Shown: positions 900-10,068 of the stretch, one piece after another | How positions within the stretch are numbered: position 1 is the stretch's first letter | Layout: every line of letters begins with the position of its first letter | From: Alphaproteobacteria bacterium | GTDB taxonomy: Bacteria; Pseudomonadota; Alphaproteobacteria; Rs-D84 | NCBI GenBank assembly: GCA_031549365.1 | Contig: JAVBPX010000009.1 | Location: 1-10,492 of the forward strand | DNA length: 10,492 nt | Direction of reading: 5' to 3' | Notes under the pieces: model-generated | Seen by the model: only the letters and a program-made list of their open reading frames with translations | The model's database searches: none | What the model was told of the DNA's origin: nothing | Translations under genes and position numbers: made by a program

Positions 900-3047
900 C
901 TATTGCATTGGTGGGAAGCAGGGGCCAGTTGGATCATTTGTTGGACAGCATGCGGATTCCGCAGGAGTCCATTCTTCGCCCGCACAACAACCGAATTGGT
1001 TTGGTGGGGTGCCGTCTTCGCACAGTGCGCCACCCGCGGATGCGCCGCCAAAATTCATTGATCCACCGCCAGATCCGCCAAAAATTTGTTTATCAATGTC
1101 AGGGGCCTTTTCCTTTTTTGCGTATGGGTCGATACCCGATTGCAATGCGGCAAGATCTGATGGTATGTATTTTTCCATTCCGGTGGCGAATGATTTGGCC
1201 ATGGATTCGTTTGTTGTTGCAGCGATTCCATTGACCATGGTCGAGCGAACCTGGCCGACATTATCGTTTTCGTTGATTTGTGCGGCAGCAATAGTACCAA
1301 AGTCGGCAGATGTAGTTTTGAGGTCGCCAAAAGCTTCGTCTGAGAAACGTACGATTAAATCGCGTGGTGAATATACAGTGATGCGAGTTCCTGCGGGTAC
1401 GATAAATGGTGGTGTTGTGTTGTCCATCATGTCGGTTACCAATTTTTGGGCGACGCGATTCCAGGATGAAATTATTTCCTGTTTCGCCAATTCAGAGCTG
1501 CGCATATTTCCGGATTGGGTTACAGTATTGTTATTTAAATCAATTTGGTTTACGAATTTATCCGAAATTGGTGCGATTAAATTGACTGCGGCTGGGACCA
1601 GCGATGTTATCATTGGCATGACGAATTCCTCCATATAATCGGTGGATCCACGGCCTGGGACGCCAATCCGCCCCTGGGCATCGGCCGAGAATGGTTGATT
1701 GCTGGGAAAATTAAATTCGGCTCCGTCTGGACGGACAAAACGATACCAATCAATTTGAATTTTTCCGATTGCCTTGTACCGGCCAGGCGCATTGTCTGTT
1801 ACGCGACCGAGCATTAAAGTTCCAGTTGGTATTACAATTGTGCGTTCGTTATCTGCGTATACGTTACGTTCAACCACGGCCTGGACCGGGAGTTTGTTTA
1901 TGGTTTGTGATTCAACACGGATGTCAGATACAATAACAGCAGGTATTGGTTTGAATTGACGCAGAACGTATTTATTGTTTTTTGGAAGAGATGAAACCTG
2001 GGCCCCGGATGTTATTGATATTGGAACAAATTCAGATTTTTCATGGTCGCCAGCACCAGGCAAGCGGTTTGCAGCAAATCCCTTTTTTTCAGGGTCGGTG
2101 TTTTTAGCGACGGCGGCTGCACGAGCCGCAACAATGGTCGCAAAATCAATGGATTGCTGTTGTGATTTTTTTCCATGTGTAGGAGAGTTCAATTGCGGCA
2201 TTAATGTTGATTCTGCGATTTTGCCGGAATTAACCCTTTCGGCGTCGGTTCCGATTTTTTGTGCGGGATTATCCAATGATGGAGAATAGATAAATCCAGT
2301 GTATGGATCGTATTCGCCCAGAGGTTTTTCGCATTTTGTATCCGCAAATCCATAATAATTATAATGGCCGGCGGCAGGAACAATCCAACCGTTTGGACGG
2401 CCAGATAAGTCGTATGAGCGAGATGCGAAGCGTAAACAATTTTCTTCGACAATTGTGGGTTCGGGTTGTTTTTTTGCTTCCTCGATTTTTGGTAATTCAG
2501 GGACAATGTTTTCGAACCAGGATGTATCAGTTTTTTCTGGTTTTAGTTCGGCAACCCGTTCACGGATGGTTGATAATGAAACAGTTATGCGTTCCCGTTG
2601 CTTTAAGCTGTCGGGACCGTTTTTTGGGCCGTAAGTAATTATAATCTGTGTTTCAAATTCCGTTGTGTATTTTGATGGAGCCCAAGACAAAGTAATGTTG
2701 CAATAGTTTAAGTTTGGTTCCAAGATACCCAAATCACGACATGTGTCCAATAATTTTAAATCGGGATCTGTTTGGGATAATGCGACGTCATAAATGCGGA
2801 CGCTGTTGCCAGATGTTATTTTAATGTCCGATTTTGTTGTGCGATTTAATTCAGCGTCATTGATTATAACGCGATCTGGATCCATTTTAATTTTAGGAGT
2901 TTGATCAACTGTAATCGCAACATTTGGGGTTTGTTTCGATGGCATTAATAAAATTACCACGAATATCGCAACGACAATAAAAGCCATGCCCAGCAAAATC
3001 CAATGCGTGTATTTTGGTAATGATGGTTTTTTTTGAGCGGTGGCCAT
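900..3047 (-). CDS. virB10: VirB10/TrbI-family T4SS core protein (715 aa) with N-terminal TM, extra periplasmic domain(s) and Cys-rich C-terminal extension
   Basis: TM at aa 16-35 and a Pro/Glu/Lys-rich linker. TrbI-type motifs at about 1345-1970: IPAVIVSDI, VQAVVERNVY, IVIPTGTLMLG, IDWYRFVRPDG, DAQGRIGVPG, PPFIVPAGTRITVYSPRDL. Lies directly downstream of virB9. Confidence 0.92.
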   Translation of the reverse strand: MATAQKKPSLPKYTHWILLGMAFIVVAIFVVILLMPSKQTPNVAITVDQTPKIKMDPDRVIINDAELNRTTKSDIKITSGNSVRIYDVALSQTDPDLKLLDTCRDLGILEPNLNYCNITLSWAPSKYTTEFETQIIITYGPKNGPDSLKQRERITVSLSTIRERVAELKPEKTDTSWFENIVPELPKIEEAKKQPEPTIVEENCLRFASRSYDLSGRPNGWIVPAAGHYNYYGFADTKCEKPLGEYDPYTGFIYSPSLDNPAQKIGTDAERVNSGKIAESTLMPQLNSPTHGKKSQQQSIDFATIVAARAAAVAKNTDPEKKGFAANRLPGAGDHEKSEFVPISITSGAQVSSLPKNNKYVLRQFKPIPAVIVSDIRVESQTINKLPVQAVVERNVYADNERTIVIPTGTLMLGRVTDNAPGRYKAIGKIQIDWYRFVRPDGAEFNFPSNQPFSADAQGRIGVPGRGSTDYMEEFVMPMITSLVPAAVNLIAPISDKFVNQIDLNNNTVTQSGNMRSSELAKQEIISSWNRVAQKLVTDMMDNTTPPFIVPAGTRITVYSPRDLIVRFSDEAFGDLKTTSADFGTIAAAQINENDNVGQVRSTMVNGIAATTNESMAKSFATGMEKYIPSDLAALQSGIDPYAKKEKAPDIDKQIFGGSGGGSMNFGGASAGGALCEDGTPPNQFGCCAGEEWTPAESACCPTNDPTGPCFPPMQ

Positions 3048-3067: not shown

Positions 3068-4531
3068 TTATTGGATGCGAACAACGTGGCACGAGGTACC
3101 TTGGAATTTTGTCAGTTGGTCGCAGAGCTTTTGAGCCTCGTCAATTGAGCCGATTGGGCCGACGCGTAAACGATATAGACGGCCGGTGGTTGATGCTGAG
3201 CCAAGTTCGCCGACGCCCTGTTCGTCAACGGCGAAGAATACGCGGTCGGAATATGGAGCCAATATGCCCTGGGCACCGTCTGTTGAATTAAATGTGGCCA
3301 GTAATTTTGTCCAGTAATCATTCAGAGATTTTACAGATGTATCAGATCCCAATTCAACAGCAACGCCAGTTTGGTTTGATGAAATAATTGGAATATCGCG
3401 CCCAGGCAAATATGATCCACGGGTTGAACGTGTGGATGACATTGGAGCGGTCGCCATGGCGGTTCCCAATGCGGATGTTTGCATTGTGCCAGGGTTTACC
3501 ATCATTGTTGTTTGTGGTGCGCCGTATGTTTGGCCCATTGGTTGGTTGTACATTGATGCCGGTTGTGAATAGATATTATTCAAAGATGCAGATTGTTCAA
3601 CGTTTGCAGATGCCAAGGCGTAAACAGATGCTGGGTCGGAAATCAAGAATGGCTTTTCACGTTTTTTGATGCAAACGATCCTTTGGCCAGAGCGTAATAC
3701 CAAGTCGCCAACAGATTCAACGACCAATAAACGGCCGTTTGGACCATCGGTTCTGAATCCCACCGGAGATTCCCCGCCTTCGATTAAAATGCTGACCACT
3801 GGGCGTTGAGTCATGGCGATAACCTTGTCCCCGAAATCAATGTATGTAAAGATTTTATCGCGCCATACACGTTCAGGTGCGATTACATAATCGTCTGGGT
3901 TTGGAACAAAGATGTCCAAGTCAAAACGGAATTCTGTTGGGTCAACCTTGATAGATTTAATCCAGCCGTAGTCTTCGTCGTCAAGTCCTGTGGATGTTTT
4001 TTTCCCGCCGAAAATTGAATTTAGGCCACCCGCGCCAGATGCGGTTGCGGTGGATGCCAAAGATGATACGGATGCATTCCCATCAATTAAAATGTCAACC
4101 ATTGAATGGGTGATTACATTTGTATTTGATGGTTCAGAGCGAAGATATAAAACATATTTGTTTCCAGATTTGCCCATGATAATTAAATTTGTGTCTGCGC
4201 CCTGGTTATCCTTGGCAGGCATGACCATTAATGTGTTGCGGTTGGTCCCCTGGGTTGTGATTTCGAAATATTCAGGACTGCCAACATAGGCGTCGGCAAT
4301 TTGTTCGCCATTTGGCATGTTGATAATGGTTATCATTCCATTGCGTAGTTTAACAGGTAAAATCGCGCCAGGCGCCCAAGTCAATTGTGCGTATCCAGGT
4401 TTTTTGCTGTCCGCCAACATATTGTTTTCAGGGTTATCCCAAGCATCCTGGACCCCATAATATTCGGCATTGGCCGTTGATGCCAAAAGCCCAAGCAATA
4501 TAAACATTGCGGAATAAAGACGTGTTTTCAT
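3068..4531 (-). CDS. virB9: VirB9/TrbG-family T4SS protein with C-terminal SPOR domain
   Basis: Start placed at ATG 4531 (AGGAAAGG RBS at 4539-4546) rather than 4555. Sec signal ending ANA. VirB9 motifs: TNLIIMGKSGNKYVLYL, IAPERVWRDKIFTYIDF, RPVV, LVLRSGQRIVCI. SPOR signature at 3068-3367: VELGS...W...LYRLRVGP...EAQKLCDQL...CHVV. Confidence 0.92.
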   Translation of the reverse strand: MKTRLYSAMFILLGLLASTANAEYYGVQDAWDNPENNMLADSKKPGYAQLTWAPGAILPVKLRNGMITIINMPNGEQIADAYVGSPEYFEITTQGTNRNTLMVMPAKDNQGADTNLIIMGKSGNKYVLYLRSEPSNTNVITHSMVDILIDGNASVSSLASTATASGAGGLNSIFGGKKTSTGLDDEDYGWIKSIKVDPTEFRFDLDIFVPNPDDYVIAPERVWRDKIFTYIDFGDKVIAMTQRPVVSILIEGGESPVGFRTDGPNGRLLVVESVGDLVLRSGQRIVCIKKREKPFLISDPASVYALASANVEQSASLNNIYSQPASMYNQPMGQTYGAPQTTMMVNPGTMQTSALGTAMATAPMSSTRSTRGSYLPGRDIPIISSNQTGVAVELGSDTSVKSLNDYWTKLLATFNSTDGAQGILAPYSDRVFFAVDEQGVGELGSASTTGRLYRLRVGPIGSIDEAQKLCDQLTKFQGTSCHVVRIQ

Positions 4532-4544
4532 TTTTAAGCCTTTC

Positions 4545-5153
4545 CTATTTTTCATAATGGTATCCTGTTACGTAAATCCCAAGTGGATTATTCAGGCGTT
4601 CGCCCCATAAAGTATCCATCGGTGGAGTTATCGCGATTGTTATTTGAATTGTAAAATCTTTTTGATCACTTTGTCCAGTGTTATCAACATCAATTGCCCG
4701 GATTTTTACGGCCCAGGTATCAATGCTGCGCGGTTCGATATTCATAATTTCGATTGAACGGCGCAATCCCATTTCATTGTTGATCCCAATTTGATAAGTT
4801 GGAGTTTTTGTGAATTCAGAATAAACATTTTTTGTAGACATCATAGCAACAGGTCCATCCGGGTTCCAACGAGATCCCATTGTGGTTCGGTTTGCCGAGA
4901 TTTCTTCGCGGGCGGCGATGTATTGTTTTATGAAATTTTCTTTGAAGGTTTCCAAGTTATATTTATTTGGAAAATAGGACTGAATCAATACGCGTTGTGA
5001 ATCGGCAGGTGCCGTGCCCATGAAAAAAATTTGAGTTTTTGTTAATGGGTTCATCATGATAAATGTCCCGATTAATACCAACAGCGTTGTCAATGCGCCA
5101 GCGAACACAAATGTTAGCATTCGTGATGTGAATAGTGATTGTGTGTCGGTCAT
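4545..5153 (-). CDS. virB8: VirB8/TrbF-family protein (canonical-looking paralog 3, 202 aa)
   Basis: Single N-terminal TM. VirB8 motifs FIKQYIAARE, MSTKNVYSEF and C-terminal ERLNNPLGIYVTGY. Immediately upstream of virB9. Confidence 0.88.
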   Translation of the reverse strand: MTDTQSLFTSRMLTFVFAGALTTLLVLIGTFIMMNPLTKTQIFFMGTAPADSQRVLIQSYFPNKYNLETFKENFIKQYIAAREEISANRTTMGSRWNPDGPVAMMSTKNVYSEFTKTPTYQIGINNEMGLRRSIEIMNIEPRSIDTWAVKIRAIDVDNTGQSDQKDFTIQITIAITPPMDTLWGERLNNPLGIYVTGYHYEK

Positions 5154-5272: not shown

Positions 5273-5917
5273 TTAATGGGATATTTCTTTGACGTCAAAT
5301 ACGCGGAAGTCAAAGATTAATGTTGGGTCTTCGCCATTTTGTAACAATTCTGATTCGTTCCAAAGACGGCCGTGATATTCCGCGCGGATAAATACGTTTT
5401 TGCGTTCAATTTTTGGCGTTGCTTGTATATCGTTTGGTTTGTCGAAAGTTGTTAGGCGGACTATGATTGAATAATAGTCATTTTTCTTTTCGATTTTTTC
5501 AATGTCGGCCAGGCGAAGAATGCCGCGATTCGACATTTCAAGCATTTCGGAAGCGACGGATTTTTGCCAGGTTTTAAATATTTCTGTGGCGGAGAAAACC
5601 TCGACCGAGAAATATTGCCCGGGACGATGCGATGCGTTTTTACGACGGTCCATTTCAGCAGAGTATGGAATAATTTCATAGTAATCGCGAACATAACGCT
5701 CAAGTAATGAATTGGTCAATGATTCGGTATTTATCATGTCCAGAGATATAGGTTTTTCCAGGCGTTGTTCCGAATAGGAATTTGTTTGAAAAATTTCAGG
5801 TTGTATTTTATGCTCGTCAGACATCATTTTTGATAGAATTTTTCCCGACATGCTGAGGCTCATCATCATGATGCAAATTAAAGTTAGGGCGCCGAAAATT
5901 GTAATTATGCGTTTCAT
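5273..5917 (-). CDS. Divergent VirB8-like membrane-anchored protein (paralog 2, 214 aa)
   Basis: N-terminal TM. LLERYVRDYYEI and FSATEIFKTW align with VirB8 helices. The C-terminal DPTLIFDFRVFDV sits where NPLGF.V..Y normally lies. ATGA overlap with the upstream gene. Fits by size and synteny. Confidence 0.7.
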   Translation of the reverse strand: MKRIITIFGALTLICIMMMSLSMSGKILSKMMSDEHKIQPEIFQTNSYSEQRLEKPISLDMINTESLTNSLLERYVRDYYEIIPYSAEMDRRKNASHRPGQYFSVEVFSATEIFKTWQKSVASEMLEMSNRGILRLADIEKIEKKNDYYSIIVRLTTFDKPNDIQATPKIERKNVFIRAEYHGRLWNESELLQNGEDPTLIFDFRVFDVKEISH

Positions 5918-6651
5918 TTCGTTGTTACCAAGGGATAGTAGTTAAATTCTGATACGTAAAATCCTGGGAATGGGATTGAATTTAAATCTTGGTCAATGCG
6001 GATATACATTACAACAGGGGTGCGTTTGCCGCGGGATTCAATTTCAACAGTTGCGCGCCACATAGTGCCGGATGATGAATCGGTGGATGGCTTTTTTAGC
6101 ATTGTTGCACGCAGGGTTCCGTCCACAATTTTTTGTGTTTCGCCAGAGGATGCCATTTTTTCATAAATTTTTAGTTCGTTTTTACGAAATTCTTGAAATA
6201 CGTTCGGATGTGATATGCAACACAAAGTGCAATCTGAGATTTTTGAATTTTGGCAGCTATCCCATTGGCATTGACACCAGTTTTTTGCGTTTGATGTCGA
6301 TATGTTTGAAATATAAAAATGTCGCGGAACGTATGACGCGATGGTGTATTCCATTGCGATTTGTTCCCAAGGCATAGTTTTGATTGGGTTTTTATAATCG
6401 GTTTCTGAAATTGCAACCCAATTTTGAGTTACTGGGTCTGTATATAACAAGTATGCGTGTAATCGTTCATTTTTTTGTGCCCACAGTAACCATCCGCACA
6501 TGATAATTATCAAAACGAACAATACAATAGAGCCAATGGCAAAGAAGCGCGAGAGTTCGATGTTTTTTGATTCTGGGAATGCTGGTGTATCAAAACGTTC
6601 AGGGTATGGGACGTTGGAAGGGGTGCGTTTCGATATGTGTTTGTTGGACAA
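5914..6651 (-). CDS. Divergent VirB8-like protein with Cys-rich insertion (paralog 1, 245 aa)
   Basis: TTG start 3 nt after the lipoprotein stop. TM at about aa 36-58, then AYLLYTDPVT, TIASYVPRHFYI, SHPNVFQEF and C-terminal PFPGFYVSEF. Insert CQCQWDSC...DCTLCC. Confidence 0.7.
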   Translation of the reverse strand: MSNKHISKRTPSNVPYPERFDTPAFPESKNIELSRFFAIGSIVLFVLIIIMCGWLLWAQKNERLHAYLLYTDPVTQNWVAISETDYKNPIKTMPWEQIAMEYTIASYVPRHFYISNISTSNAKNWCQCQWDSCQNSKISDCTLCCISHPNVFQEFRKNELKIYEKMASSGETQKIVDGTLRATMLKKPSTDSSSGTMWRATVEIESRGKRTPVVMYIRIDQDLNSIPFPGFYVSEFNYYPLVTTK

Positions 6652-6879: not shown

Positions 6880-8502
6880 TTACCAGTCCATTGGGTATAT
6901 AGAATTTGATTTAGGTTTAAAGTCAATGAAGGCAGCGCGAGGAGGTTGGATTTGCCAGAATGGAATCAGAATTCCATCCATTAGAGCAATCCGACTGATC
7001 ATGTGCATTGCAGCGCCCAGATTAATTGTTGGATTGTTAAATGAATTGATAATGCGATCCACCGATTCATTGCGATAGTTTGCGTAATTTAAGCCGTAAT
7101 TATTTAATGCTGAATCTGTCCCGAAGTATAAATTTAATGCGTATTTCGGATTCGTTAAAATTGGCATAGTGGCAACAACCATATCGTAATCGTAATATTT
7201 TAAGCGTTCATTATAAGTGTAATCGCTGACGATATCCAATTGTGTTGGAATGCCAATTTCGTTTAGTGTTTTTACCATGTTGATTAATTGCTCTATTAAA
7301 ACAGTATCCGAATTAATTGTGTCAGGTGCCAAGATTTTTATTTGAGCAGTGTCCGCACCGCGCATGAATTTTTTTTCGTGGGTGTTGTAATTATATCCTG
7401 CGTTTTCAAGCGCCAATCGAAGTGGAAGCAAGGGTTGAATGGTATTCGTTGCACAATTTTCACTGAAAAAAGGGCAGGAGTCCGCAGGTACCCGAGTGTA
7501 TTCCATAGCAGATGGAGGTGAATAATTTCCAGAATAGATTTTTGGATTTATTTTGTCGGATAGGCCCAGAATTTCGATAACGTTGCGTTCTTCGGATGTC
7601 ATGAATCCATGATAATCGGATAGTAAGCAATTAAATCGAGTCGCGTCCATGCCTGCCAGTTTTTGGTTTGTTATTGGCAATGCCAATCCAATTTGAGTTC
7701 GAATTTCAAGGTTTTGGAACAAAGGTGTTTGAGTGTTTAGCCATAAACCAGATACCGGAGTTTTTGTTTCGGATAGATGTTTTATGTTGTTTTCGTCCGT
7801 CTTTAATTCGTGGTATGGGTCGTCGTATATAACATTAATTTTTTTAGAGTTAAACAATTTCCATAATTCGTCATACGGATGATTTTCAAATGCCAAGCTG
7901 TGCAGTTTAGATTTAGTGTCGACTTTAGTGTCGACAGGAGTTAGTAAAATTTTGGTGTCAGTTATTGATTCGATTTTATATGGGCCAGATGTTGTTTTTA
8001 AAAATTTTAGCGATGCGTATGTTTCGTTCTTGATTTCATTTTTTGGCAAAATTTGCATTGTTAAAAAAGTTAAAAGTTGGGATTCCGAAGTTTCAGATAT
8101 TGATGCTATTAATGTTTTATCATCGATTTTTTCAATTGATAGTATTGGTGATAATTCGGCAGTAAGAGTTAAGTCTGATTTATAAAAATTAAATGATGCG
8201 ATTATGTCGTCCGAAGTAATTGGTTCGCCGTTTGACCAAAATTTATCAAAGAGTTTGATTGTTAATTTGTTTTCGCGTTCAGATATTGAATATTCCCCCA
8301 GGTTTGATTGTAAATATTTTTGGTCGTTTATTCGGATTATTGGTTCGTATAATAAGTCTGAGATAGCGTATGGTAAAATAGGGGTTGGTTTTATTGTTGT
8401 GATTTTATTGGCCGTTCCGATTGTAATCGTTGCCCCAAAAGCGTTTGATACAATCAAGCAAAATGCAATGAATATAAAAATAAAACGGTCAAAGCGATCC
8501 AT
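6880..8502 (-). CDS. ABC transporter solute-binding protein, family 5 (divergent YejA/OppA/DppA-like)
   Basis: Signal peptide ending NAFG and GGGGGAG RBS. SBP_bac_5 motifs: WSNGEPITSDDIIASF, SGPYKI, WLNTQTPLFQNLEIR, LENAGY, LNEIGI, DYDMVV, NYANYRNESVDRII, LIPFW. Confidence 0.85.
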   Translation of the reverse strand: MDRFDRFIFIFIAFCLIVSNAFGATITIGTANKITTIKPTPILPYAISDLLYEPIIRINDQKYLQSNLGEYSISERENKLTIKLFDKFWSNGEPITSDDIIASFNFYKSDLTLTAELSPILSIEKIDDKTLIASISETSESQLLTFLTMQILPKNEIKNETYASLKFLKTTSGPYKIESITDTKILLTPVDTKVDTKSKLHSLAFENHPYDELWKLFNSKKINVIYDDPYHELKTDENNIKHLSETKTPVSGLWLNTQTPLFQNLEIRTQIGLALPITNQKLAGMDATRFNCLLSDYHGFMTSEERNVIEILGLSDKINPKIYSGNYSPPSAMEYTRVPADSCPFFSENCATNTIQPLLPLRLALENAGYNYNTHEKKFMRGADTAQIKILAPDTINSDTVLIEQLINMVKTLNEIGIPTQLDIVSDYTYNERLKYYDYDMVVATMPILTNPKYALNLYFGTDSALNNYGLNYANYRNESVDRIINSFNNPTINLGAAMHMISRIALMDGILIPFWQIQPPRAAFIDFKPKSNSIYPMDW

Positions 8503-8644: not shown

Positions 8645-9022
8645 TTATTTATTGGCGAGGAGGTGAGTGTGGAAGTGTGGAACTTCTTGGCCGCCGCCGG
8701 GGCCTGTGTTCACCAATATTTTAAAGCCTGGGTTTAATAATTCCAGTTTATCTGTCGTTTCGCGAACGCAGCGCCAGAAATCTGATTGTTCTTGGGAGGA
8801 TGCGTCGCGGGTAAAGTGATAGATGTTTACGTATGGGCCCTTTGGGATTATCAGTACATGTACGTCGGCGCGCGGATTAACATCATGGAATGCCAGGGAT
8901 TTTTCAGTTTCGTGGACGCGTTTGCATGGAATTTCATTGCGCAGTATTTTTGCAAATACATTATTTGGATCGTAATTACAGTTTGGACACTTTTCAGAGC
9001 AGCAGGTCATGATTATCACCAT
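8645..9022 (-). CDS. hinT: HIT-family nucleotide hydrolase (HinT/PKCI-1 type); start may be ATG 9010
   Basis: YDPNNVFAKILRNEIPC, LAFHDVNPRADVHVLIIPK, and NTGPGGGQEVPHFHTHLL with the H-x-H-x-H triad. Confidence 0.93.
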   Translation of the reverse strand: MVIIMTCCSEKCPNCNYDPNNVFAKILRNEIPCKRVHETEKSLAFHDVNPRADVHVLIIPKGPYVNIYHFTRDASSQEQSDFWRCVRETTDKLELLNPGFKILVNTGPGGGQEVPHFHTHLLANK

Positions 9023-9048
9023 TGGTTGGGATTTTTTATGTCAGATGT

Positions 9049-9077
9049 ATTTTAACACTTTTTGTAAAGCGGTTCAA
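9049..9077 (-). promoter_or_regulatory. Putative sigma70 promoter of the HIT gene
   Basis: Minus strand TTGAAC-N17-TAAAAT with an extended -10 TG. Confidence 0.45.
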
Positions 9078-9108
9078 TTAAAAGTGGAAAGATTTTTATA
9101 AACAGGTG

Positions 9109-9402
9109 TTATGATGGGGTGGATTTGTTTTTTGCTATTCGGATTACAAGGGCGCCGATACCACCCCATTGGGTTGGTGCAGTTGTAACAGATTGTATCC
9201 AGGGATAGTTTAAAGAATCGCACCAGGTTTTTACTGATTGGTTTATTATTCCTGAGCCACGGCCAGTTATTATTAGTGCGCGTGTTGTCCCGTTTTCGTG
9301 ACAGTTTCGAACAAAGCGGTCGAACAATATGAATGCCGAGTCCACTGTGTTATCATGGAGATCTAGTTTTGTTTCTGGGATTTTTTCTTTGAGGTGCGAC
9401 AT
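9109..9402 (-). CDS. Stand-alone Smr/MutS2 C-terminal domain protein (97 aa from ATG 9402)
   Basis: KLDLH..TVDSA, ALIITGRGSGII, W, APTQWGGIGALVIRI. The ATG at 9402 is preferred over the track's non-ATG start at 9462. Confidence 0.9.
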   Translation of the reverse strand: MSHLKEKIPETKLDLHDNTVDSAFILFDRFVRNCHENGTTRALIITGRGSGIINQSVKTWCDSLNYPWIQSVTTAPTQWGGIGALVIRIAKNKSTPS

Positions 9403-9409
9403 GTGATTG

Positions 9410-9438
9410 AATTTAACAATAAAATGTTTAGGTGTAAA
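9410..9438 (-). promoter_or_regulatory. Putative promoter of the Smr gene (possibly leaderless)
   Basis: TTTACA-N17-TAAATT with extended TG. The -10 ends 7 nt before the ATG and there is no Shine-Dalgarno. Confidence 0.4.
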
Positions 9439-9471
9439 GGGGAATCGTAATTCGAAAAACAATATTGTTGA

Positions 9472-9594
9472 GATTGATGCGTCACTGTGTGGCTAGCAAT
9501 GACAATATTACATTGCTGTCGCAATGGTTTTATTACTGGATCCTCTCGCTGTGCTTCCACCTTTGTTAAAACTATGGTGGACAGGCAGGATGAC
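9472..9594. repeat. Composite REP/RPE-like repeat between the HTH and Smr genes
   Basis: Same module order as 142-243 and 10184-10281: gattg...atgac, ttgctgtcgcaa, ttactggatcctctcgctg...ggatgac. Contains an extra hairpin TCCACC...GGTGGA (9556-9581). Confidence 0.82.
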
Positions 9595-9618
9595 ATTTAT
9601 TGCAATGGTAAATATAAA

Positions 9619-10068
9619 TTAGGCGTTTTGAGGGAGCTTTTTGGAAAGGTTTTCCATAATTGCAAACACGTTATCACGTACAGAATCATTTGGTAATTTC
9701 CAAAACAAATTAATCAATTTTAATGATTCGTTACGTGTTAATGGATCATTTTCAGATGGCTCGGATACATGTAGACCGCGGCGTTTTGATTTTGTAGGTG
9801 AAAAATCATCCATGATTACTGTTTGATTGGGGAGCCCTTCGAAGAAGAAGGCCACAGGTGTTTTTAAGGCCATTCCAATTTGAAACAGGCGGGATGCTGA
9901 AATGCGGTTTACAGCAGTTTCGTATTTTTGGATTTGTTGGAATGTGATATCGCAGGCGGTTGCCAGTTCGTCCTGGGACATGCCGACCATATTACGGCGC
10001 AAGCGTAAGCGTTGGCCGACGTGGATGTCGACGGGGTCCGGAGTGAAGGTTGGTTCTGGTTTTGCCAT
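9619..10068 (-). CDS. XRE/Cro-CI family HTH transcriptional regulator (alphaproteobacterial type)
   Basis: PDPVDIHVGQRLRLRR..GMSQDELA..ITFQQIQKYE..NRISASRL..FFFEGL, and C-terminal ESLKLINLFWKLP..VRDNVF. AAAGGA RBS. Confidence 0.93.
   Translation of the reverse strand: MAKPEPTFTPDPVDIHVGQRLRLRRNMVGMSQDELATACDITFQQIQKYETAVNRISASRLFQIGMALKTPVAFFFEGLPNQTVIMDDFSPTKSKRRGLHVSEPSENDPLTRNESLKLINLFWKLPNDSVRDNVFAIMENLSKKLPQNA

Follow-up and report, generated by a model that had tools for sequence, protein, structure and literature searches.

A VirB9-family protein with a predicted, divergent SPOR-family tail in Alphaproteobacteria of the order Rs-D84

The stretch of DNA analyzed here, 10,492 nucleotides (nt) of contig JAVBPX010000009.1 from assembly GCA_031549365.1 (hereafter the window), belongs to an alphaproteobacterium of the order Rs-D84 and encodes a distant relative of VirB9, a subunit of the core complex of type IV secretion systems (T4SSs). 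Sequence comparison and a structural model together identify the C-terminal tail of this protein as a divergent SPOR-family domain. The resulting VirB9-SPOR architecture is real, conserved, clade-defining, and experimentally tractable. On balance we favor the prediction that the tail binds glycan and in this way tethers the T4SS core complex in the cell wall.

The virB9-SPOR gene (3068..4555, minus strand) is one continuous frame of 495 amino acids (aa) plus a stop codon at 3068-3070. It is supported by the translation in the list of open reading frames (ORFs), by Pfam matches to CagX and SPOR, and by full-length relatives in 80/80 related loci. An initial annotation, made from the letters of the window, had proposed that VirB9 and a SPOR domain are fused in frame. 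This is borne out, with both PF03524 and PF05036 scoring above cut-off and with neither a stop codon nor a frameshift in the linker of the uninterrupted 495-aa frame.

The tail occupies aa 397-495 (3071..3367, minus strand). Pfam SPOR (PF05036) matched the whole protein with 30.8 bits (E 3.8e-7) and the last 99 aa alone with 34.8 bits (E 2.2e-8), against a cut-off of 21. Modeling of the last 115 aa with AlphaFold2 (AF2) from a 31-row alignment gave a mean predicted local distance difference test score (pLDDT) of 73.3, a predicted template modeling score of 0.67, and a β-α-β-β-α-β topology, with strands at 17-25, 59-64, 80-88, and 110-114 and helices at 28-43 and 91-102. The model has, at moderate confidence, the four-stranded antiparallel sheet with two helices on one face that characterizes the ribonucleoprotein (RNP)-like fold, a fold class shared with non-SPOR proteins. 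The 99-aa SPOR domain first recognized by its residue pattern is thus upheld by a Pfam match above the gathering score and by a SPOR-like predicted fold.

Structural searching with Foldseek against the PDB ranked the SPOR domain of Pseudomonas aeruginosa RlpA, solved with denuded glycan, first (6i09_A, E 6.6e-4, probability 1.00), with a template modeling (TM) score of 0.67 by target and 0.48 by query. All of ranks 1-3 were SPOR domains (RlpA 6i09, apo RlpA 6i05, and CwlC 1x60), and DedD (6ztg) stood at rank 27. Profile comparison with hhalign aligned the family profile to the four Escherichia coli SPOR tails with 65% probability over β3-α2-β4, while a more diverse profile built from 27 representatives reached 49% over 68 columns, which is the whole domain. 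MAFFT alignment of the tail with the E. coli SPOR domains misplaced β1, and the hhalign alignments were used for residue matching throughout. It is the combination of a Pfam score above cut-off, the fold, and hhalign that leads us to accept homology to SPOR and to place the tail as a divergent member of the family.

Ahead of the tail, the CagX/VirB9 domain (PF03524) covers aa 57-298 (3662..4387, minus strand; E 2.4e-21, 76.9 bits against a cut-off of 34.2), and the LRSGQRIVCI motif that had been noted at its C-terminal end is confirmed at residues 287-296 (nt 3668-3697). The P-type VirB9 equivalog model of NCBIfam (TIGR02781) returned 49.2 bits against a cut-off of 217.7, and we therefore treat the protein as a distant VirB9-family member rather than an equivalog. 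Column identity, computed here and below across 120 homologues, is 0.81 in the N-terminal half of VirB9 and 0.98 in the C-terminal half. AF2 modeled the N-terminal half (aa 55-157) with block-mean pLDDT of ~67-90, and the C-terminal half poorly. A probable Sec signal peptide, read by eye, spans residues 1-30 (4466..4555, minus strand), ends in ANA, and has no lipobox Cys; AF2 places an N-terminal helix at residues 6-26.

The spacer between VirB9 and the tail had been described as a single linker of ~95 aa rich in Ser, Thr, Gln, and Met. Its size and composition stand, at 100 aa (I296 to G397) with 38 S/T/Q/M residues; its uniformity does not. A conserved segment directly after VirB9 (aa 297-325; 3581..3667, minus strand; column identity 0.96), in which AF2 draws a low-confidence helix at 309-319, is followed by a variable, probably disordered linker (aa 326-375; 3431..3580, minus strand; column identity 0.43) rich in G, T, A, N, M, P, and Y, and then by a conserved stretch that leads into the SPOR domain (aa 376-396; 3368..3430, minus strand; column identity 0.84). 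In the 120 homologues the variable linker measures 42-75 aa (median 63), and AF2 pLDDT is below 50 across residues 287-386.

Relatives of the protein are numerous in the same group of bacteria. We compared 80 related loci, the best 80 of 527 species-representative genomes encoding a relative (of 569 pattern matches), and all 80/80 align through the last residue, with VirB9 and tail contiguous and the tail at the very C-terminus. Since column identity in the SPOR tail is 0.85 and the tail is always C-terminal and contiguous with VirB9 in these loci, a chance match is excluded. A word-indexed protein search found at least 1304 homologues at E<=1e-3 among 8000 candidates scored. The 120 listed homologues, apart from the query itself, are 476-528 aa long, with 57-65% identity and 93-100% query coverage, and those named among the listed matches are TrbG/VirB9 proteins from metagenome-assembled genomes of Alphaproteobacteria or Rickettsiales bacteria. 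Detection of SPOR in these relatives is borderline, with a precomputed Pfam SPOR flag on 6/120 of the listed close homologues.

Hosts of the 80 loci are Candidatus Enterousia and unclassified gut or termite-gut Alphaproteobacteria with reduced genomes, of the order Rs-D84; two of the loci lie on complete chromosomes of 716,531 and 958,618 bp. Members of Rs-D84 have been described as having genomes under 1 Mb from which biosynthetic pathways are missing, and as probably obligate symbionts or parasites (PMC12306168). The word ‘secretion’ has 0 occurrences in that paper, and T4SSs go unmentioned in the passages of it considered here. Peptidoglycan machinery is present in the lineage, as a Peptidase_S11 protein with a SPOR domain in locus L012 and an M23 protein with LysM in locus L021. 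Seven records (L001, L003, L006, L007, L008, L011, and L012) are titled ‘uncultured Muribaculaceae’ or ‘Bacteroidales’ yet carry an alphaproteobacterial VirB9 with 58-64% identity; the taxon labels of these records, one of them a 716-kb complete chromosome, look wrong.

The residues that contact glycan in known SPOR domains show what the tail has kept and what it has changed. A Gln in β1 (RlpA Q270, FtsN Q251, DamX Q351) is reported as the sole highly conserved side chain of the family; it hydrogen bonds the lactyl carboxylate of N-acetylmuramic acid and the N-acetyl group of N-acetylglucosamine, is described as characteristic rather than absolute, and has equivalents in FtsN and DamX that are reported as required for septal localization (PMC6895207). 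The lactyl carboxylate is further held by a basic patch formed by R302, R309, and R311 in RlpA and including R285 in FtsN (PMC6895207). In the tail, Glu401 (nt 3353-3355) and not Gln takes the position of FtsN Q251, according to hhalign with the 27-representative profile (probability 49%, E 1.7e-4). The basic patch is retained: Arg462 aligns with FtsN R285, and the spacing of R462-L-R464 (nt 3164-3172) equals that of RlpA R309-x-R311, with no equivalent of RlpA R302 identified in the tail. Glu401, Arg462, Arg464, both cysteines discussed below, and the YRLRxGP motif are identical in 80/80 loci. A minus-strand gene in locus L012 (L012:20841-21452) encodes a Peptidase_S11 fragment (D-Ala-D-Ala carboxypeptidase) followed by a canonical SPOR domain (26.2 bits), with the Gln retained in a VQxGAF strand. 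With a Gln-bearing SPOR protein of this kind in a related genome, the Glu is specific to VirB9 and not a lineage-wide drift.

The initial annotation had counted a Cys pair as part of the SPOR pattern. Both cysteines, Cys478 (nt 3122-3124) and Cys489 (nt 3089-3091), are indeed there; such a pair is not a general SPOR feature, however, and FtsN alone among the four E. coli SPOR tails has one. In FtsN, C252 in β1 and C312 in β4 are joined (PMC6895207). C489 aligns with FtsN C312 in hhalign, and C478 sits in helix α2 of the AF2 model. Given the invariance of both residues and the position of C478, an intradomain disulfide that differs from that of FtsN, running from α2 to β4 (C478-C489), is likely.

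To place the tail within the wider VirB9 family, a profile was searched against 1.84 billion representatives, giving 559 matches at E<=1e-3, of which the best 150 were analyzed. Pfam was run on the 93 of these that are at least 360 aa long, the 57 shorter ones being set aside, and found CagX in 93/93, SPOR at E<=0.01 in 11, and SPOR at 21 bits or above in six. A hidden Markov model (HMM) of the tail located it at the extreme C-terminus in 28/150 representatives, or 27/150 after iteration with a stricter database size. A C-x7-13-C-x2-9 ending occurs more widely, in 60/150 representatives, comprising 27 tail-HMM matches, eight members of group B, 24 of group C, and one probable junk sequence. 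By hhalign, group B matches the family at 96.7-98.9%, and group C matches the 27-representative profile at 90.9% and group B at 94.8%; each figure comes from a single comparison, and group C aligns poorly. Compared directly with E. coli SPOR domains, group C, whose tails diverge most, reached an hhalign probability of 0.2%, and its link to SPOR is therefore transitive, through groups A and B. A second large family from uncultured Alphaproteobacteria, centered on P0135, comprises at least 1472 of 8000 scored proteins at E<=1e-10, with precomputed SPOR plus CagX in 30/120 listed matches. One representative, P0156 (478 aa), consists of DUF2961 (82 bits), the C-terminal part of CagX only, and then SPOR; this could be a genuine rearrangement or a chimera created by gene calling.

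Tail-bearing relatives also occur on plasmids. Plasmid p1 of Sphingosinicella sp. BN140058 encodes a 430-aa VirB9 ending in a group B tail, for which Pfam SPOR gives only E 0.12, and pMVF16-3 of Microvirga sp. VF16 encodes one of 550 aa with a group C tail in which Pfam SPOR is not found. The VirB9 of Erythrobacter aureus is 432 aa by annotation, and a Paracaedimonas plasmid VirB9 of 318 aa has no tail. In Sphingosinicella, Microvirga, and Erythrobacter the gene belongs to a full VirB2-VirB11/VirD4 operon beside a MobA/MobL relaxase gene, so that VirB2, VirB3, VirB4, VirB8, VirB9, VirB10, VirB11, and VirD4 are encoded together. The order in these operons (L081, L087/L088, and L089) is MobA/MobL relaxase, a DnaB-like helicase in 2/3, VirB2-VirB11, and VirD4. 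An ORF of 58-68 aa ahead of virB8 in 2/3 operons could be VirB7. From the relaxase gene to virD4, the annotation of all three operons (3/3) lacks a lytic transglycosylase, and Pfam found none among the unannotated ORFs of two. Microvirga carries a ‘cell wall hydrolase’ gene ~1.1 kb upstream of its relaxase gene.

We inferred a tree from the columns of the VirB9 core, without those of the tail. Its 107 rows were 104 representatives in which the core is nearly complete, the window protein, and two plasmid proteins; P0122 was left out as probably fragmentary, as were 45 representatives whose cores are incomplete. The tree splits with 98% local support into one side that holds 48/48 tail-bearing rows plus eight tail-less ones and another of 51 rows with 0 tails; the tree is unrooted and from FastTree only, and the representatives were picked with a profile that included the tail. 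At least eight changes in tail presence or absence are needed, all within the tail-bearing side. On these sequence relationships we regard the tail as an old hallmark of one VirB9 clade, which takes in plasmid T4SSs of free-living Alphaproteobacteria.

Several observations weigh against a glycan-binding SPOR tail and must be set beside the evidence above. Glu stands at the conserved Gln position in 80/80 loci, with Asp there in the plasmid-type group B, and either carboxylate should, judging from the reported contacts of the Gln, repel the lactyl carboxylate that Gln normally hydrogen bonds. Only a single Foldseek match falls at E<=1e-3, with its query-normalized TM of 0.48, and ferredoxin-like folds (ribosomal protein S6, CutA) follow close behind the SPOR domains. 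A tail-profile search of the PDB returned no SPOR chain at E<=10, with only noise at E>=0.17, and the hhalign probabilities for E. coli SPOR domains are weak at 49-65% (81% for group B). The domain is ~99 aa long, where a typical SPOR domain has ~70 aa (PMC6895207), with apparent extra segments after α1 and between β2 and β3, the latter at low confidence in AF2. Look-alike scores from an atlas for the tail of a homologue were 0.88-0.89, below the lead threshold of 0.9, with SPOR-bearing clusters at ranks 2 and 3. Lastly, neither the C-terminal half of VirB9 nor the placement of the tail in the complex has a confident model.

We nevertheless consider wall anchoring by the VirB9 tail plausible. 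The protein would be exported to the periplasm and located under the outer membrane in multiple copies, in keeping with the description of an outer-membrane core complex in which VirB7, VirB9, and the C-terminal domain of VirB10 are each present 14 times (PMC8740702). Being periplasmic, present in many copies, and equipped with a tether of ~100 residues, each VirB9 would dangle a SPOR module able to reach peptidoglycan. SPOR modules bind glycan strands, and many weak contacts around the channel would tether and stabilize the machine in the wall. With the R-x-R pair kept and Gln exchanged for Glu, we expect glycan binding with an altered preference and not the strictly septal binding of FtsN or DamX. 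Septal or polar targeting of the T4SS, which the initial annotation had proposed, is speculative, because the conserved glycan-contacting Gln is Glu in 80/80 loci.

Alternative accounts differ in how much of the SPOR function the tail would retain. If it were a canonical SPOR domain, it would bind amidase-denuded septal glycan, and the T4SS would be pre-installed at the division site and inherited at new poles, possibly without a VirB1-type hydrolase. Family membership, fold, and the basic R-x-R pair all agree with this, and the AMIN domains of PilQ have been shown to serve the type IVa pilus machine by the same logic (PMC5285504); polar placement of a T4SS is moreover known in Legionella, where it depends on DotU (PMC9302130), and the lack of an annotated or Pfam-detected lytic transglycosylase in the 3/3 plasmid operons, from relaxase gene to virD4, adds a faint hint. 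We still think canonical septal binding unlikely. The Gln whose FtsN and DamX equivalents are reported as needed at the septum is replaced by Glu, the replacement is peculiar to VirB9 given the Gln-bearing SPOR protein of L012, and the Microvirga operon does have a ‘cell wall hydrolase’ gene near its relaxase gene. The opposite possibility is that the tail derives from SPOR and has lost wall binding, to serve as a protein-protein or ring module (taking over, for example, part of the role of VirB7) or as a disulfide-stabilized domain for assembly or quality control. Small α/β domains commonly build periplasmic rings in secretion machines, and such a change would suit the loss of the conserved Gln, the invariant Cys pair at its new α2-β4 position, the high conservation of the flanks at 297-325 and 376-396, which a passive tether does not need, and the conserved six-Cys tail of the VirB10 encoded in the cluster (76/80 loci). 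We rate it as improbable, however, since true SPOR domains, including one solved in complex with glycan, head the structural matches, the R-x-R patch for the glycan carboxylate is strictly kept, and a variable, disordered linker of 42-75 aa suits a tether that reaches and binds better than it suits a fixed ring.

An artifact, in which Pfam matched by chance or two genes were joined by misassembly or a frameshift, could draw on the borderline detection of SPOR, flagged in 6/120 of the listed close homologues. It is effectively refuted, and we assign it a negligible probability: the frame is uninterrupted, the same contiguous architecture with identical key residues recurs in 80/80 independent loci, fold evidence agrees with SPOR, and at least 1304 homologues were found at E<=1e-3 among 8000 candidates scored. 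A bolder version of wall anchoring, and one we view as a long shot, is that this T4SS clade has re-tuned SPOR (Gln to Glu or Asp) to a non-canonical wall feature, so that the core would find or hold its own hole and be positioned at new poles with no VirB1-type hydrolase required. Such features may include strands produced at the insertion site of the machine, either de-N-acetylated or anhydro-ended, and the clade concerned may span conjugative-type plasmids of Sphingomonadales and Hyphomicrobiales as well as the chromosomal system of reduced-genome gut symbionts.

The tail can be compared with SPOR domains of known function (RlpA, FtsN, DamX, DedD, and CwlC), with which it shares the Pfam match, the predicted RNP-like fold, and an xRxRxGP strand with basic Arg. 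As in most SPOR proteins, it ends a long low-complexity linker (PMC6895207). It differs from them in having Glu for Gln, in its greater length (~99 vs ~70 aa), and in its two apparent extra segments; FtsN in particular has its Cys pair between β1 and β4, in contrast to the α2-β4 pair read here from the model and alignment. SPOR hosts are usually divisome proteins or wall hydrolases, whereas here the domain sits on a subunit of a secretion machine.

Among VirB9 proteins, those characterized include TraO of pKM101 and VirB9 of Agrobacterium. The initial statement that characterized VirB9 proteins end at the VirB9 domain holds for TrwF of R388, the one solved VirB9 that matches by sequence, whose 266-aa chain has no tail. 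TrwF shares with the window protein the CagX/VirB9 Pfam domain and the virB8-virB9-virB10 order; the window protein is distant from it (E 3e-4) and longer by ~200 aa at the C-terminus.

The closest precedent for the proposed mechanism is PilQ of P. aeruginosa, in which a wall-binding module is likewise fused to a multimeric outer-membrane ring protein of a trans-envelope machine. Its AMIN domains are reported to bring the machine to sites of future division and have been proposed as an anchor against force (PMC5285504). The mechanism there is the one that the initial annotation proposed for VirB9, where it is a prediction. PilQ has the AMIN fold at its N-terminus and serves a type IVa pilus, and the VirB9 tail is of the SPOR family, C-terminal, and part of a T4SS. 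Within T4SSs, DotK and Dis1 of Dot/Icm are likewise peptidoglycan-binding parts of the outer-membrane core complex (PMC9302130); they are separate, accessory OmpA-like proteins of a type IVB system, while the module in the window is fused to VirB9 in a VirB-type (type IVA-like) gene set. Other secretion systems carry wall anchors on inner-membrane subunits, namely TagL/TssL of the type VI system and GspA/ExeA of the type II system (OmpA-like, PF01471), which share the principle and differ in domain and host subunit from VirB9-SPOR.

A full-text literature search, judged largely from titles, abstract openings, and term counts, found no published description of a VirB9-SPOR fusion, and automated Pfam annotation already flags CagX plus SPOR in some database entries. 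Conceptual novelty is limited, since secretion machines with wall-binding modules have been described before and PilQ already provides, through its AMIN domains, a case of pre-installation at the septum; by analogy with PilQ, built-in polar targeting would not be a new concept. How core complexes cross the wall, hold on, and choose a site in the cell is open for most T4SSs, and a module fused to VirB9 offers a direct handle on the question. Residues to work with are Glu401, Arg462/464, and Cys478/489, where effects on assembly, position, and transfer are measurable. The tail-bearing clade includes cultivable plasmid hosts, which makes the question testable outside the uncultured gut lineage. 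The Rs-D84/Enterousia bacteria themselves have been proposed to depend on partner cells, and a T4SS is a candidate tool for this.

In the window, virB9 is encoded between virB8 and virB10, in the order virB8-virB9-virB10. Directly upstream, virB8 (4545..5153, minus strand; Pfam VirB8, E 2e-14) overlaps virB9 by 11 nt and has tblastn matches in 80/80 loci. Directly downstream, virB10 (900..3047, minus strand; 715 aa) matches Pfam TrbI at aa 368-564 (E 1.2e-16) and the NCBIfam VirB10 model below cut-off, with tblastn matches in 79/80 loci. Two further minus-strand ORFs upstream of virB8, 5914-6651 (245 aa) and 5273-5917 (214 aa), have membrane-anchor-like starts, and the 245-aa ORF holds a Cys-rich cluster. 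They were considered as VirB8 paralogues and set aside from the feature, as their pairwise similarity to VirB8 is marginal (E 0.023 and 0.003), neither Pfam nor NCBIfam recognizes them, and each occurs in 1/80 loci. Beyond them lies a gene for a solute-binding protein (SBP_bac_5; 6880-8502, minus strand; 540 aa), with the model matching its first half only. This gene has a counterpart in 0/80 related loci, and HIT, Smr, and HTH genes follow at 8645-10068; the flanks of the cluster are therefore not conserved.

Pfam and NCBIfam found no VirB4, VirB6, VirB11, VirD4, or pilin within the window, or within ~10 kb on either side of the triad in loci L012 and L021, where virB8-9-10 is surrounded by housekeeping genes. 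In L012 these are rpoB, rplJ, rplA, rplK, and nusG upstream and yidC, lspA, ksgA, and recR downstream. As far as the flanks of L012 and L021 show, the chromosomal T4SS has a scattered layout, in genomes under 1 Mb.

VirB10 itself has two unusual ends. Its first 355 residues (1983-3047, minus strand), ahead of TrbI, have no Pfam match, and the N-terminal regions of classical VirB10 proteins are generally shorter than these ~355 aa. Past the TrbI domain, the last ~43 aa (903-1031, minus strand) form a six-Cys tail of the pattern C-E-D-G ... G-C-C ... C-C-P ... C-F-P-P, which has no Pfam match, is recovered by tblastn in 76/80 related loci, and may fold into a small knob, rich in disulfides, on the core complex.

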